64,000 bases of DNA, taken from positions 1-64,000 of IMG/VR virus record IMGVR_UViG_3300034053_000029, one strand, 5' to 3'. The notes beneath the pieces are model-generated. The model was not told the DNA's origin and made no database searches. It saw nothing but the letters and a program-made list of their open reading frames with translations. Source of the stretch: a virus. Taxonomy: Duplodnaviria > Caudoviricetes. Made by a program: the position numbers and the translations under genes. Below are positions 17,248 through 60,903 of the stretch, piece after piece. Every line of letters starts with the position of its first letter. Position 1 is the stretch's first letter.

Positions 17248-17807
17248 CCTTTCATAATAGTGATGATTCGTCGCATATCATACTGACCAAGACCACGATC
17301 TTCATCCACCAAAATCAATTTGTCATCATACTTATCTTTGTCTGTAATAAGCGCACGATACATGCTATAACCGGAACTCTGATCATCGAGCGCAATCCAG
17401 TTTTTGACTTCTGGATGACGGGACAACCACGACTCGACTTGATGTAATCGACTACATGGATATCCAACACCATCCGAAATCTTTACCCAATCGTCATACT
17501 CAACTGCTTCACCACCTGTTTTCCAATCGGGATGTAGTAGAATAGGAACTTCATTTGTTTCAAACAAATCGATTGTGTTCTCCGGAGTCTTTAGGTGGTT
17601 TCTCCATGTCGAGGAAACGACCGTCTTGAAGTCATAGACTTTGTGCAAGTGTGTCCAGAAGTACTTGAATCGGTCGCACATTCTCCAGTAGTCGCATATC
17701 TCAATCAAGTCAGGATCGCCGGGATATACACGACGATTATCTGGATGGAATGAGATATCTACGTTAGTAAACACTGGTCCGTCGAAATCTAAGAAAACTA
17801 TATTCAT
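17238..17807 (-). CDS. HAD domain protein of Swiss-Army-knife RNA repair type
   Basis: IVFLDFDGP, VVSSTWR, WL..HPEV.NWIALDD. Confidence 0.8.
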   Translation of the reverse strand: MNIVFLDFDGPVFTNVDISFHPDNRRVYPGDPDLIEICDYWRMCDRFKYFWTHLHKVYDFKTVVSSTWRNHLKTPENTIDLFETNEVPILLHPDWKTGGEAVEYDDWVKISDGVGYPCSRLHQVESWLSRHPEVKNWIALDDQSSGYSMYRALITDKDKYDDKLILVDEDRGLGQYDMRRIITIMKGWS

Positions 17808-18694
17808 TTGAATTTATCCACCAATCGTTGTAATTCTGAAACAAGAGCATCCGTACCTTGATCTTTCACGAAAGCGTTACTAATACTCCCATAATGCATT
17901 TCGATACATTCCATCAGTAAATTCTTAATCACTTTTTCATCAGGTGTATTTTGTAAAGACGAATTTATATAAACCCCTTCGAGTTGTAATTGTTTTTGCT
18001 GATGCCATTCTTGCAATTGATCCAACGACCATTCTCCACGACGGATTGACATGAGGATTTTTGAATTACGCTCAAGGTCTAGATCATATTCTACCATGAT
18101 CTGTTCTGCCTCAAGTAACAACCTCACAACATGATAAGCGAATTTTACATCATACCCGAAATCTTCAATTGTCTTAGCACGTTTCGGATTAGATGAATTG
18201 ACTTTGTTTGCAATCTTGCTCATCTGACTGTGAGCATAACCAGAAAACTTATGCTTGCTACCTTTATGCAAAAACAATTTCCGATTATCACGAATATGCT
18301 CGTAAATATGGGTAGAATGAAGAACACAACGTCGAGGTAAGAATAAACTATCGACCATGTTTGGATTGTTTTCCATCGTCAATTGAAAGAATTTCACGAT
18401 AGAAAATATCGTAAGATCAAATTCCTTATTCCATTCTGGAACTTTAATATGGTGTTGTTGAAATTGCTCAAATCTTTCTTGTGGTGTTCCAAACCCAATA
18501 ATTTCTCCACGAAGATGAGGGAATAACACATCTTTTGGTGGCATACAGAATCCAACAATATCCATATCGCTTGTGTCGTTAGAACATCCATACGCAACCG
18601 ATCCAGTTAGTCCTTCAAAAAGAACATTGTTGGATAACCATTTTGGAGCATGAATTAGTGATTTTTCAACTAACTGATTTACATAACTTGACAT
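17804..18694 (-). CDS. DNA Pol-beta superfamily nucleotidyltransferase (RlaP / T4 NrdC.11-like)
   Basis: GSVAYG.S...SD.DI.G; NPN..D.L; YDVKFAYH..RLL. Confidence 0.85.
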   Translation of the reverse strand: MSSYVNQLVEKSLIHAPKWLSNNVLFEGLTGSVAYGCSNDTSDMDIVGFCMPPKDVLFPHLRGEIIGFGTPQERFEQFQQHHIKVPEWNKEFDLTIFSIVKFFQLTMENNPNMVDSLFLPRRCVLHSTHIYEHIRDNRKLFLHKGSKHKFSGYAHSQMSKIANKVNSSNPKRAKTIEDFGYDVKFAYHVVRLLLEAEQIMVEYDLDLERNSKILMSIRRGEWSLDQLQEWHQQKQLQLEGVYINSSLQNTPDEKVIKNLLMECIEMHYGSISNAFVKDQGTDALVSELQRLVDKFK

Positions 18695-34530: not shown

Positions 34531-35652
34531 TTATTCATAATACTTCTCCAATAATTTCACACGTTGGCTCATGTCCATTGATTCAAATGCCTCGTAAACA
34601 CCAACCCCGTCCTTTCGTGCCTTAAACATAATCGGTGCAACCTTTCGATCCTTTACTAATAATGCAAAATCCTTTTGGGATTCGATTTTCTTATTCGCAC
34701 AATATACTTCAACTGCCTCATCTAGCAATTGACGCAGAGCATCTTCAATAGGATCAACGTATTCTTTGAACATCGGAAAATAAGTAAGCAGTTCGTCTTG
34801 TTCATTCATCAGCACCACTTCCATCATGCGTGATACTGACGGAACTCCATTACCACGAAGATGATGAACTGCCGCATACGTCTTGCTCTTGATCTTCACA
34901 CGCTCACCAGTATTATGATCGAATACGACGAAACCCTCTTGCAGGTTCGGCAATGAATCCGCCAACTTCACAAGATCGTCACCAGATGCCGCTTCATATC
35001 GCTGCGGCATACGGACATTCATCCACTCTGCAAAGAACGGAAAAGAACAGTCCGGAGATTCTTCCTTGCCAGTTTTGTTGTCGATTACGCCAAGAAAAAC
35101 CATGTGGAGTGATTCATATCGAGTAACGATTTGGTTCTCCGGACCTACGAACTCCATCAGGAAAGTTATACCATGATCAACGTCCGACATATTGCGTTGG
35201 AATTCATCGAATGAAACACCCATCGCTTTCAGAATCCAGTCCTTAAATTGACCACCAGAAGCAGTCATCGAGAATACGAAGTTGCCTTCCGCATACGCCA
35301 TCCCACGAGTGCCTATCTCCCAACGATTGTCCTCCGGCGACCAATAGATCATCACAAGAGTACCGTCTGCCTTTTCCCATACGGTGCAGTTAGAGAAGTC
35401 GAAGTCCTGCGTCCAACCCTGACCAAAATTATAGAATCGCTTGAACGGACGGCAGATCACCTTGGAACGATTTTGATCGTCTACCCAAAGCACAACGCCA
35501 CGACATTCATCGGAAATCGGATGGAAATTCGGTGAATCGATTTGTGAATAATTCAACTTCACATATCCATTCGGATAACGCTTGACTTCAACGCCAAGAT
35601 GCTCAGTTAGAGCATCTAAGCCATTATCAAATATGAATTCTTGAACTTTCAT
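34531..35652 (-). CDS. rnlA: RNA ligase 1 (T4 Rnl1-like)
   Basis: Motif I EKADGTL, TRG, MEFVGPEN.IV, EGFVV, VKIKS. Confidence 0.9.
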   Translation of the reverse strand: MKVQEFIFDNGLDALTEHLGVEVKRYPNGYVKLNYSQIDSPNFHPISDECRGVVLWVDDQNRSKVICRPFKRFYNFGQGWTQDFDFSNCTVWEKADGTLVMIYWSPEDNRWEIGTRGMAYAEGNFVFSMTASGGQFKDWILKAMGVSFDEFQRNMSDVDHGITFLMEFVGPENQIVTRYESLHMVFLGVIDNKTGKEESPDCSFPFFAEWMNVRMPQRYEAASGDDLVKLADSLPNLQEGFVVFDHNTGERVKIKSKTYAAVHHLRGNGVPSVSRMMEVVLMNEQDELLTYFPMFKEYVDPIEDALRQLLDEAVEVYCANKKIESQKDFALLVKDRKVAPIMFKARKDGVGVYEAFESMDMSQRVKLLEKYYE

Positions 35653-57782: not shown

Positions 57783-57983
57783 TCATATGAATATATTTAT
57801 AGAATGTCCTTTTGGAGAATTTTCCATAATAATTCCATCACTTCTATATATCGGATAATATGTCAATGTGGTTGATGCCTCAATGACTTCCGAATTACCC
57901 AACGTCACTACATTGTATTGTGTCGAAAGAACACCACACGGAGAGACGTATGGGTAATATGTCGGGTAGTTACAGATCACCAT
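57783..57983 (-). CDS. Hypothetical protein
   Basis: ORF track. Confidence 0.4.
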   Translation of the reverse strand: MVICNYPTYYPYVSPCGVLSTQYNVVTLGNSEVIEASTTLTYYPIYRSDGIIMENSPKGHSINIFI

Positions 57984-58521
57984 GATGGTCGAATGTCACT
58001 GGAATTTTTTGCATTTCGGCAATGAGGTCTTCCATATTGTAAAATTTAAAATTGTTGGTGTCAATCCCAACGTCTTTAATGCGACCTTGGAGACCAGTAG
58101 GACTAGAATGACAGTGGCCATGAAAATGTATTGCTCCATGCCCCATACCATTCCATCGAGCCATAGGGAAATGGCACATAACAATCTTCTGTTTGTTGAT
58201 CGTGATTTCCTTTAGCTTTTCGACCCAAACAAAATATCGATGAAGCTCGACTTCCTTACGGATTCGATAATCGTGGTTTCCAAGAACGAGCTTGATTTGT
58301 CCTGTGAGCTTTGGCAGAAGATCATACAGACGTTCCTTGCGACCCATAGCAAGATCGCCAAGCACATAAATTTCATCGTGTGGCTTGACCGTTGAAGTCC
58401 AGTAATCAAGTAACGCCTCACTCATGGCATCACTTGTGTCAAATGCGCCACGAGATTCTTGGCAGTATTTTACGATATTCTCATGGTAAAAATGGGTATC
58501 CGCTGTAATCCAAATTGTCAT
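57970..58521 (-). CDS. Calcineurin-like phosphoesterase (phage type)
   Basis: ADTHF.H.NI, YVLGD, GNHD, CHFP, HGHCH. Confidence 0.9.
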   Translation of the reverse strand: MTIWITADTHFYHENIVKYCQESRGAFDTSDAMSEALLDYWTSTVKPHDEIYVLGDLAMGRKERLYDLLPKLTGQIKLVLGNHDYRIRKEVELHRYFVWVEKLKEITINKQKIVMCHFPMARWNGMGHGAIHFHGHCHSSPTGLQGRIKDVGIDTNNFKFYNMEDLIAEMQKIPVTFDHHGDL

Positions 58522-58530
58522 AATTTACTC

Positions 58531-58740
58531 CTAATCAGGTAATGCCTTGTAATGTGCAAGATGTTCAAAAAGTTTGATGATGTAACCGGCAGATGATCCA
58601 GAATGGTCTCGACCATCCAATATGGATAACATCTTAATTACATCGGTGCACAATATCTCTTGCATACCGTCTTTCCAAACTCCGTCAGTAACCCAACCTT
58701 TCCTGACAAACTCACTCATAGCAAATTCTGCGCTGTTCAT
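58531..58740 (-). CDS. Conserved hypothetical protein
   Basis: MQE....D....L......HSG.SA.Y....F..LA....L. Confidence 0.6.
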   Translation of the reverse strand: MNSAEFAMSEFVRKGWVTDGVWKDGMQEILCTDVIKMLSILDGRDHSGSSAGYIIKLFEHLAHYKALPD

Positions 58741-59129
58741 ACTTTAATCTCCCATTGAAAACGTGCCTTCATGCGTTCAATAGCTGCCTCTGGCACGTTA
58801 TGAATTGATCCAAACTCACCTTGAACGGTAATAATTTGCAACTTAATTCCCTTCTCTTTCGCCAGATCGATATACGGTTGACATTCCTTTTGAGTAGTGA
58901 AGGTGTTCGATACAATTACACTCATATTGTGACCGAGATATTCATCGGTCTGCCGGAAGCACCACTGATGAGCAGAATGCAATTTCGATTGGTCAAAAAC
59001 GTATTGACCATTTTTCATGAAATACATATCTGCTTCAAAATTAATGGAGTTATTATCTGCACCTAGTGCCTTAGCCAAAGTGGATTTACCTGACCCAGGA
59101 AGACCACGGATGAGTGTTAGTGTTTGCAT
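58737..59129 (-). CDS. P-loop kinase (polynucleotide kinase-like, AAA_33)
   Basis: LIRGLPGSGKSTLA, EADMYF, VSNTFT, HNVP. Confidence 0.9.
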   Translation of the reverse strand: MQTLTLIRGLPGSGKSTLAKALGADNNSINFEADMYFMKNGQYVFDQSKLHSAHQWCFRQTDEYLGHNMSVIVSNTFTTQKECQPYIDLAKEKGIKLQIITVQGEFGSIHNVPEAAIERMKARFQWEIKV

Positions 59130-59572
59130 TATAATCCCTTAATTGTGTCCTTCAACTCCAAATACATTTCATTGTATTTGCGAAGTCGAGCAGTATCTTT
59201 TTCCGTTATCCCTTTAAGCCTACGAATGTCGCTGTTATGACGAAGATCAGCAAGTTTTACAAGAATGGCATCTTTATTGGTCTTAATCCCATCAACATAT
59301 TCACGGTGAGTTTGTCCACGGTATTTGGTCAATAGTCGAAGTGCATCAACTACCCTCTTGGTGAATCCCATTTCAGATAGATCATTAAACGTAACGTCAG
59401 TGTCTTCAACAACATCGTGCATCACCGCAATCATCATAACTTCAAGATCATCAGTTTTGGTGTAATGCATAACTTTCAATGGATGCAAGATATAAGGCAT
59501 ACCACCTTTATCGAATTGCCCCATATGTTTTTCAGAGGCAAGTGCAATTGCTTTAGCTAGAAGAGTTTTCAT
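59129..59572 (-). CDS. HD-domain (p)ppGpp hydrolase-like (Mesh1/SAH type)
   Basis: H.GQ.DKGG.PYILHP, MHDVVEDT, VKLADL.HN. Confidence 0.85.
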   Translation of the reverse strand: MKTLLAKAIALASEKHMGQFDKGGMPYILHPLKVMHYTKTDDLEVMMIAVMHDVVEDTDVTFNDLSEMGFTKRVVDALRLLTKYRGQTHREYVDGIKTNKDAILVKLADLRHNSDIRRLKGITEKDTARLRKYNEMYLELKDTIKGL

Positions 59573-59825: not shown

Positions 59826-59872
59826 TATAAATAATATGTGGATCACGATGCGCTAACATCTATCCACCCTAG
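59826..59872 (+). ncRNA. Late promoter + conserved endonuclease leader hairpin, copy 3
   Basis: TATAAATA; GTGGAT-CAC-GATG[CGCTAA]CATC-T-ATCCAC-CCTAG. Confidence 0.6.
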
Positions 59873-59900: not shown

Positions 59901-60542
59901 ATGAATATTTATGCCGAAATGATATCAACAATTGCAATTAAAAACAAATATACCAAATGGTATCTGTCGATTATTTCAAACTCAAAATATAAAGAAGGGT
60001 ATTGTGAAAAACATCATATTCTTCCAAAGTGTTTCAAACTTGGTGGAGAAAAAGACCCATCAAATATCGTCAAATTGACTGCTAAAGAGCATTTTGTTTG
60101 TCATTTGTTATTGACTAAAATGTTCTTAGACAAAAAGAAATTTCAAATGATATACGCTTGCAATCGGATGTGTTTCAAACAAACACCAAATCACAAACGA
60201 GAATATGCAGTTTCATCTTCAGTATATGCTATAGTTAAATCAGAACAATCAAAGTATATGAAAATTAACAATCACAATAAAGATGGCAGTCAATCTAAAG
60301 CAGCATGGGATGTTGCATCCGAAGAAAGACATATAAATCAATCAGCAGTTGCAACTAAAAGGAATATAGAATATTGGGCAACAAGAAAGAAACCAATATT
60401 AGATTTTATATGTGAAGTGTGTGGAATTGAGTTTACATCAAAAAAGGAAAATCGTCGTTGTTGCGGCAAATCTTGTGCAGCAAGACTCAGAAATAAAATG
60501 CGGTGGCTTGGGAAACAAGGTATGCCACCAACCCCGGTTTGA
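59901..60542 (+). CDS. HNH homing endonuclease with C-terminal Zn finger
   Basis: EKHHILPKC..LGG..DPSNIVKLTAKEHFVCH; CEVCG...CCGKSC. Confidence 0.9.
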   Translation: MNIYAEMISTIAIKNKYTKWYLSIISNSKYKEGYCEKHHILPKCFKLGGEKDPSNIVKLTAKEHFVCHLLLTKMFLDKKKFQMIYACNRMCFKQTPNHKREYAVSSSVYAIVKSEQSKYMKINNHNKDGSQSKAAWDVASEERHINQSAVATKRNIEYWATRKKPILDFICEVCGIEFTSKKENRRCCGKSCAARLRNKMRWLGKQGMPPTPV

Positions 60543-60785
60543 GTACTCCTTATGCTGCTAAGGCCCAAACAGCGTCATTAGATGCGCCATTTACATAGTT
60601 TATCATCTTCGACCGAGTTGCCCCAATCCTAACGGCTTCTGATTATTGCCGATTCTCCAGATCATATCTATGCCCAATCGAAAGGATTATACAGGCCCAT
60701 GGATAAGCACACATCTCTATGTGCTTATTGGTGGACCTGACGGACACCACGCCGTGTCTTGAACATTTCAACTTTCCTTCAACGA
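60495..60785 (-). ncRNA. ssrA: Two-piece (circularly permuted) tmRNA: acceptor piece ~60729-60785, intervening hairpin 60699-60728, coding piece ~60495-60698
   Basis: ...CAGGTCC-A-CCA precedes GGGCCTG (G3:U70); TTCGA then TTGGGCAT pairing ATGTTCAA; pk1 at 60625-60654; tag GGC GCA TCT AAT GAC GCT GTT TGG GCC TTA GCA GCA TAA. Confidence 0.88.
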
Positions 60786-60789
60786 ATTC

Positions 60790-60903
60790 TTAAAATCCTT
60801 CTCTATTCACAAATAATGCACCGTCATAAACCATCCATGATCCACAAAATGTTAACCAGTCACACTTAGATTCTTTCCATACATCAAAGAACTCTTTTTT
60901 CAT
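60790..60903 (-). CDS. Small hypothetical protein (37 aa, not in ORF track)
   Basis: MKKEFFDVWKESKCDWLTFCGSWMVYDGALFVNREGF. Confidence 0.45.
   Translation of the reverse strand: MKKEFFDVWKESKCDWLTFCGSWMVYDGALFVNREGF

Follow-up and report, generated by a model that had tools for sequence, protein, structure and literature searches.

Identification of a two-piece tmRNA gene in a large phage genome

The first 64,000 nucleotides of the IMG/VR virus record IMGVR_UViG_3300034053_000029, hereafter the window, carry on their minus strand (60491..60787) an element that homology, covarying helices and conserved unusual loops identify as a genuine circularly permuted, or two-piece, transfer-messenger RNA (tmRNA) gene of the beta-proteobacterial type. 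The source record is a complete virus genome of 210,171 bp with direct terminal repeats, of which the window is the first 64 kb (G+C 38.4%), and the phage has 13 tRNA genes. Full-length Rfam alignments and ARAGORN, run with its threshold lowered to 70% (-ps70), delimit a whole precursor composed of an acceptor piece, a spacer, a coding piece and a terminator. In searches of the window, the models RF04321 (tmRNA_permuted; 44.1 bits, E 2.5e-7) and RF01850 (beta_tmRNA; 33.2 bits, E 1.6e-8) both align with the element from end to end, and RF04321 returns it as the single match in the whole 210-kb genome (E 1.3e-8). ARAGORN -ps70 calls a permuted tmRNA with identical domain boundaries and the tag GASNDAVWALAA, a call that we count only as corroboration because the same setting also yields one spurious call on the plus strand.

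The acceptor piece opens with the 5' strand of helix P2a, AUGUUCAA (60759..60766), which pairs with 60670-60677 and helps to join both pieces, as sequence and family covariation indicate (here and below, all parts of the element lie on the minus strand). GAC and the T arm (60740..60755) follow, the latter assigned by homology and consisting of the stem ACGG(C)/(U)CCGU, with four pairs plus a C.U mismatch, and a six-nucleotide loop, GUGGUG. The acceptor 3' strand CAGGUCC (60739-60733), A73 (60732) and an encoded CCA, at 60729, form the 3' end of the piece (60729..60739; sequence, Rfam and ARAGORN -ps70). An intervening segment of 30 nt (60699..60728), defined by folding and by comparison with relatives, makes an 11-bp hairpin with a GAGA loop, whose basal stem AAGCACA/UGUGCUU is common to relatives. 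The order is permuted: the CCA-ending 3' half of the tRNA-like domain lies upstream of the 5' half, which starts with G1 at 60698. The 5' end of the coding piece, GGGCCUG (60692..60698; sequence, Rfam, ARAGORN -ps70 and covariation), forms seven acceptor pairs with CAGGUCC, G3:U70 among them.

Next in the coding piece come the D-loop analogue UAUAAUCCUUUCGA (60678..60691; by homology), with UUUCGA and with CC at 60685-60684 where the family has GG, and the P2a 3' strand UUGGGCAU (60670..60677; sequence and covariation), which makes an 8-bp helix with AUGUUCAA; the outer part of P2 is weak. A candidate pseudoknot, PK1 (60625..60651), comprises CGGC (60651-60648)/GCCG (60636-60633) and AAUC (60644-60641)/GAUU (60628-60625). 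The resume signal UAAAU (60593-60589) and the tag frame (60588-60550) occupy 60550..60593, as ARAGORN -ps70 also finds, and the frame GGC GCA UCU AAU GAC GCU GUU UGG GCC UUA GCA GCA UAA encodes (A)GASNDAVWALAA and then stops, retaining an ALAA end and an aromatic residue, Trp, at the Tyr position. The 3' domain (60502..60537) contains CCGGGG, the stem GGUGGC (60529-60524)/GCCACC (60507-60502) and the loop AUACCUUGUUUCCCAA, which is conserved throughout the family; the order CCGGGGUU, GGUGGC, AUACCUUGUUUCCCAA, GCCACC matches a feature of the beta-type model RF01850, and the GGG run of the domain may form base pairs with CCC in that loop. A U-rich tail (60491..60501) behind the stem gives an end that resembles an intrinsic terminator, as it does in the related contigs L137, L138 and L140; a simple terminator scan does not report it because the loop is longer than 8 nt.

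Single-sequence folding recovers the acceptor stem and the spacer hairpin and misses P2a. Energy minimisation pairs UGAAAUGU (60763-60770, minus strand), which sits just 5' of the P2a strand and overlaps it, with GCAUUUUA (60494-60501, minus strand) in eight pairs that compete with P2a; this helix could exist in the precursor only, linking the transcript ends, or could have arisen by chance.

A sequence-only reading of the window had proposed a permuted tmRNA gene here, and direct reading of the minus strand finds all of its elements where that reading had put them. The permuted gene itself, the alanine identity elements (a 7-bp acceptor stem, G3:U70 and A73), the tag frame with its ALAA end and Trp where Tyr or Phe is usual, and the covariation of the two halves among homologues have likewise held up, the first through the full-length alignments of both permuted Rfam models and the agreement of ARAGORN -ps70. 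Its premise that phage tmRNAs are one-piece has not, as phage two-piece tmRNAs are published (PMC9004378) and abundant in IMG/VR.

A phage lineage of beta-type two-piece tmRNAs

Two-piece tmRNAs occur in Alphaproteobacteria, some Betaproteobacteria, cyanobacteria and mitochondria. A loose pattern (TCCACCA, spacer, GGGnnUG, UUUCGA) matched at least 119 IMG/VR contigs, and in these pattern-matched loci a profile built from nine copies gave 72 matches and default ARAGORN called 56 permuted tmRNAs plus one of standard type; all nine family copies scanned with Rfam scored above the cut-offs as beta-type. Two cultured phages carry unannotated beta-type permuted tmRNAs, Stenotrophomonas phage DLP_6 (L193, KU682439.2, approximately 102838-103059; 137 bits) and Synechococcus phage BUCT-ZZ01 (L194, ON615601.1, approximately 116952-117248, reverse strand; 112 bits). 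Taken together, the pattern, profile, ARAGORN, Rfam and cultured-phage matches indicate that beta-type two-piece tmRNAs form a widespread phage lineage, which circulates in T4-like and other large phages and of which the element is a member.

The helices that would hold the two pieces together covary within this family. In an alignment of 30 sequences covering the acceptor stem, the T stem and P2a, 92% of cells are paired, as against at most 62% when partners are slid, and 81 cells show double changes against 22.5 in shuffles. The acceptor stem covaries while G3:U70 is retained in 29 of the 30 sequences, P2a has double changes at 6 of 7 pairs, and the window copy keeps 7/7 acceptor pairs, 8/8 P2a pairs and 4/5 T-stem pairs.

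The closest relatives were found through the tag. Four viral contigs (L136-L139) encode AANDAVWALAA, and two identical metagenome contigs, L140 (Ga0315271_10007770) and L141, encode exactly GASNDAVWALAA, as called by default ARAGORN. Over the stretch that runs from UAAAU up to the 3' stem, L140 is identical to the window at 62 of 64 bases, one change falling in a synonymous Ala codon, and its differences in the 3' stem and the PK1 hairpin are all compensated. The 3' stem covaries more widely, reading GAGGCGGC/GCCGCCUC in L140, GAGGGGC/GCCCCUC in L138 and AGUAGC/GCUACU in L139, and the PK1 hairpin has one compensatory change in L140 (CCGC/GCGG versus CGGC/GCCG). At 66.4 bits L140 exceeds the Rfam cut-off; its T-loop is canonical and its D-loop has GG. 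In its tRNA-like half, the window copy is nearest to L138 and to another family member, L016, and against both of these the P2a helix and the first pair of the T stem show compensated changes.

Despite the same or nearly the same Trp tag, L136-L141 differ from the window copy in the elbow, with canonical T-loops (UUCGAnU; UUUCGAA in L139) and GG D-loops where the window has GUGGUG and CC. The acceptor stem or P2 also differs in L140/L141 and L139, the D-loop differs in L138, and the spacer measures 91 nt in L137, L138 and L140, 211 nt in L136 and 31 nt in L139 compared with 30 nt in the window. The spacer locus of L136 lies at 1257-1451, and the L137 spacer holds a T-arm-like hairpin, GUGGUUCGAUUCCAC.

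Several phage or metagenome contigs encode the tag core NDAVWALAA, whatever the synonymous codons used, and a search with its codon pattern found no match among representative genomes of 185,579 bacterial and archaeal species. This confinement of the Trp tag to phage and metagenome DNA hints that the tmRNA lineage evolves within phages, without repeated copying from hosts. Other searches returned nothing: blastn against GenBank phages found no match for the element, for the 19 kb around it or for the L140 tmRNA, the exact T-arm pattern had no match in IMG/VR, and a metagenome pattern combining the CC D-loop with this acceptor stem had none either. The shared acceptor stem and permuted layout had 51 matches in bacterial genomes, which gave no clue to the host; among them, real beta-type tmRNAs occur only in Cupriavidus and, weakly, in one Rickettsiales metagenome-assembled genome.

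Apparently coupled changes in the T-loop and D-loop

By homology with L016 and L031, members that also have six-nucleotide loops, GUGGUG stands in the place of UUCGAU and is closed by the C.U mismatch, and CC replaces the GG of the family in the D-loop. Across 46 distinct copies, namely 44 from viral or metagenome contigs and one each from the two cultured phages, every copy with a canonical T-loop has a GG D-loop (30/30), and GG is missing in 9 of the 16 with deviant T-loops (Fisher p = 1e-5, uncorrected for relatedness). GGCAGUA loops and two loops of the UGCGAAU type are accompanied by AG in the D-loop. This pattern argues that coupled change of the two loops is a trend in the family. Deviant T-loops occur in accepted members, as in L094, which has GGCAGUA yet scores 127.7 bits with Rfam, and the T-loop sequence is therefore typical of the family without strictly defining it.

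The unusual loops recur in other metagenomes. A search of sequencing runs found parts of the element in four freshwater DNA runs from three studies, the contigs of which represent relatives of about 90% identity. One contig has 0 differences over 60732-60800 (the T arm, the P2a 5' strand and the upstream lead) and 14 in 60801-60880, within an upstream ORF (open reading frame) of 39 codons. Contigs from three runs (two studies) differ at about 3-5 bases over 60655-60800, the listed positions being 60666 (linker), 60716 (spacer loop) and 60722 (spacer stem, where A to G keeps the pair as G.U). Differences in the coding piece fall in linkers and loops (60545, 60594-60598, 60616, 60620, 60631, 60640 and 60645), and the only change inside the tag frame, at 60553, is synonymous; the 3' part of a convergent endonuclease gene, described below, is far more diverged. 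GUGGUG and CC are unchanged in these relatives, whose flanks diverge by at least 17%. Because the odd loops persist in contigs from other metagenomes, we conclude from these alignments that the GUGGUG/CC elbow is no assembly artefact and lies in a conserved island.

Proposed function and alternative explanations

We think it probable that the element is still active in trans-translation and relies on host SmpB. Expression, processing, charging, SmpB binding and tagging are here inferred from the tmRNA family, as follows. The minus strand would be transcribed, probably by read-through from the upstream genes, ahead of which a promoter scan found only a weak 9/12 box (62349-62321). Host RNase P would cleave before G60698 and host 3'-processing enzymes would trim to the encoded CCA at 60729, releasing the 30-nt spacer hairpin and leaving a short acceptor piece and a coding piece of about 200 nt, held together by the 7-bp acceptor stem and the 8-bp P2a. 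Host alanyl-tRNA synthetase (AlaRS) would charge the RNA by way of G3:U70 and A73, and host SmpB and EF-Tu would bring it to stalled ribosomes; SmpB (PF01668) was not found in the phage genome. Translation would resume at GGC and add (A)GASNDAVWALAA, and the ALAA end would direct the tagged product to Clp-type proteases. The 13 phage tRNA genes and nearby genes of RNA-repair type provide a context for such a function.

A number of observations weigh against a working tmRNA, the first of them concerning detection. The element scores below the curated Rfam gathering cut-offs (44.1 against 47 for RF04321 and 33.2 against 84 for RF01850), with the loss in both alignments located precisely at the T-loop, and default ARAGORN misses it in the window, where Rfam at gathering thresholds and default ARAGORN report just one tRNA-Met, elsewhere. 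The ARAGORN and Rfam checks proposed in the sequence-only reading were accordingly positive at -ps70 and by E-value and negative at default and curated settings, and its expectation that a non-canonical T-loop would escape standard finders was borne out. In structure, U54-U55-C56 are missing from the T-loop and GG from the D-loop; in silico the T arm is just as stable in another register, GACAC/GUGUC, which would leave three unpaired bases ahead of the acceptor stem; folding energy by itself is weak evidence (z = -2.0), and the fold pairs the P2a 5' strand with the 3' tail instead; and PK1 is a candidate, its second stem AAUC/GAUU being invariant while the neighbouring loop bases 60640 and 60645 vary. 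A promoter scan found no convincing promoter directly upstream, where L137-L139 have TTGACA-type boxes, and none of the RNA runs searched holds the sequence of the element. The evidence of conservation comes from few and short contigs, and recent gene conversion beside the homing endonuclease gene could explain part of it.

On the same facts, the element could be an inactive relic, that is, a true tmRNA homologue that has lost its elbow, and with it SmpB binding, and is heading to loss. Gone are the most conserved loop bases of tmRNA and tRNA; the fifth T-stem pair is a mismatch, the Rfam scores are low, the gene has no strong promoter of its own, and no tmRNA was seen in the 44-kb fragment of a relative whose copy of the neighbouring HD gene is 81% identical. 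We nevertheless judge decay unlikely, for the remaining helices are intact, as are the tag frame and the resume signal, with compensated changes, the damage is limited to exactly two mutually contacting loops, these loops are identical in the freshwater relatives in spite of their diverged flanks, and deviant T-loops in other family members also come with altered D-loops.

The T-loop and the D-loop touch each other in tRNA-like domains, and we read GUGGUG and CC as coupled changes in two touching loops and not as decay. The interaction is reported as necessary for SmpB binding in the account that PMC3968760 gives of Barends 2002. In tRNA numbering, the substitutions would turn G19:C56 into C19:G56. 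A more specific proposal, which we put forward tentatively and regard as doubtful though possible, is that the elbow has been rebuilt and not broken, with the 19:56 pair inverted and U54 lost, giving a working tmRNA without the universal T-loop signature. If so, the RNA would be no substrate for enzymes and nucleases that act on the T-loop (TrmA/TruB-type modification, or defence RNases that recognise the T-loop), and the gene would no longer fit a homing-endonuclease target in DNA that encodes a canonical T-loop. The same logic would also explain A18/G55-type variants (GGCAGUA or UGCGAAU with an AG D-loop) in other phage tmRNAs.

A changed elbow could also alter handling by SmpB or the ribosome while acceptor identity stays, so that the RNA, though made and charged or bound, would not rescue ribosomes and would instead compete for host trans-translation factors or serve as their decoy. 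Mycobacteriophage DS6A offers a precedent, a tag-less tmRNA-like RNA that inhibits host tmRNA, as mentioned in PMC11915505. Such repurposing seems to us quite improbable: relatives keep the tag frame, its resume context and the ALAA end, differing there by a single synonymous change, and a pure decoy would have no need of them; moreover, DS6A-type RNAs have no coding part.

Chance resemblance, or an element of another kind, for instance a piece of coding sequence or a bare terminator region, might be suspected from the scores below curated thresholds and the spurious opposite-strand call of ARAGORN -ps70, yet it is scarcely credible and effectively refuted, given that each of two independent covariance models matches it over the full length, with E of about 1e-7 to 1e-8, that the tag and 3' domain are common to recognised tmRNAs, that no sizeable minus-strand ORF in the ORF list of the window crosses the element, and that L140 resembles it, the family covaries and relatives pass Rfam.

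Comparison with known tmRNAs

The beta-proteobacterial two-piece tmRNA was described by Sharkady and Williams (2004), as cited in PMC9004378 and PMC3968760. The element shares with that type (RF01850) the permuted order, G3:U70, A73, a short stem-closed spacer, P2, UAAAU followed by the resume codon, the ALAA tag end and the 3' hairpin loop ACCUUGUUnCCCAA, and its acceptor stem is identical to that of the Cupriavidus copies. It differs in being phage-borne, in its score (33 bits against a cut-off of 84), in its GUGGUG T-loop and CC D-loop, in its Gly resume codon, an extra N-terminal tag codon and Trp for Phe/Tyr, and in outer P2 helices that match poorly.

Among phages, Melnitz, which infects OM43, and pelagimyophages carry two-piece tmRNAs, and ARAGORN flagged 53 two-piece structures among the tmRNA genes of 18,146 phage genomes, mostly aquatic (PMC9004378); the tmRNA database, the source of RF04321, holds 79 phage sequences (PMC11915505). 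Since phage two-piece tmRNAs were already published, the headline claim of novelty fails, and as a phage two-piece tmRNA the element is ordinary. It resembles the Melnitz, pelagimyophage, DLP_6 and BUCT-ZZ01 cases in coming from a large aquatic or T4-like phage with a permuted tmRNA near tRNA genes, and, as for the published phage cases, the use of host factors is presumed. The ssrA of Melnitz is reported to fall among alphaproteobacterial sequences and to be linked with a glutamine riboswitch (PMC9004378), whereas the element is beta-type and Rfam found no riboswitch match in the window. The two-piece tmRNAs of PMC9004378 were identified by ARAGORN, and those of DLP_6 and BUCT-ZZ01 pass Rfam; the element is missed by default ARAGORN and lies below both Rfam cut-offs. 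The DS6A RNA is likewise a phage-borne tmRNA derivative, one with an altered function; it has no tag frame and no permutation, in contrast to the conserved frame here.

What is new here, at the level of sequence, is a conserved pair of non-canonical T-loop and D-loop together with a Trp tag in a beta-type phage two-piece tmRNA. If functional, the GUGGUG/CC elbow would be a natural double mutant of the contact between the two loops and a test case for what SmpB and the ribosome require. Both elbow loops are rewritten and standard finders therefore miss the element, which illustrates that default ARAGORN and Rfam gathering thresholds overlook real phage tmRNAs with altered elbows; surveys consequently undercount phage tmRNAs.

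Genomic neighbourhood

A homing endonuclease gene (59901..60542, plus strand; phrog_655, E 8.7e-33) converges on the tmRNA gene and, with its final 48 bases, overlaps the 3' domain of the latter; a late-promoter box, TATAAATA, is present upstream of the endonuclease gene at 59826-59833. Convergent, overlapping ORFs resembling homing endonucleases are also present in L140 (4552-4926, minus strand), L138 (4912-5574, plus strand) and L137 (3605-4282, plus strand). The L140 ORF is truncated and shares 49% identity with the C-terminal half of its homologue in the window, and those of L137 and L138 belong to another family, phrog_314. At least two endonuclease families are thus found at the 3' end of Trp-tag tmRNA genes in four phage contigs, and the tmRNA 3' end looks like a recurrent site of endonuclease insertion or homing. 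Recurrent homing could explain the mosaic, in which differing tRNA-like halves accompany a nearly identical tag and 3' domain.

The genes downstream of the tmRNA (57970-59572, minus strand) encode an HD phosphohydrolase, a polynucleotide-kinase-like AAA_33 ATPase and a metallophosphoesterase, and elsewhere in the window are a homologue of RNA ligase 1 (34531-35652, minus strand; phrog_562) and a nucleotidyltransferase (17804-18694, minus strand; phrog_388). The combination of RNA-repair-type genes, 13 tRNAs and a tmRNA suggests an investment in translation under RNA damage. No relatives were found for the upstream 284-aa protein. Synteny was followed through the HD gene to four related fragments, and no tmRNA was found either within 6 kb or anywhere else along them; the one weak match, in L130 (19.7 bits), lies in coding-looking sequence and was taken as chance. 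In DLP_6 the tmRNA gene stands directly upstream of a tRNA array, and in the viral contig L065 (1031-7664) a permuted tmRNA ends an array of more than 15 tRNA genes, one member of which matches the model for selenocysteine tRNA (51.2 bits; cut-off 47).

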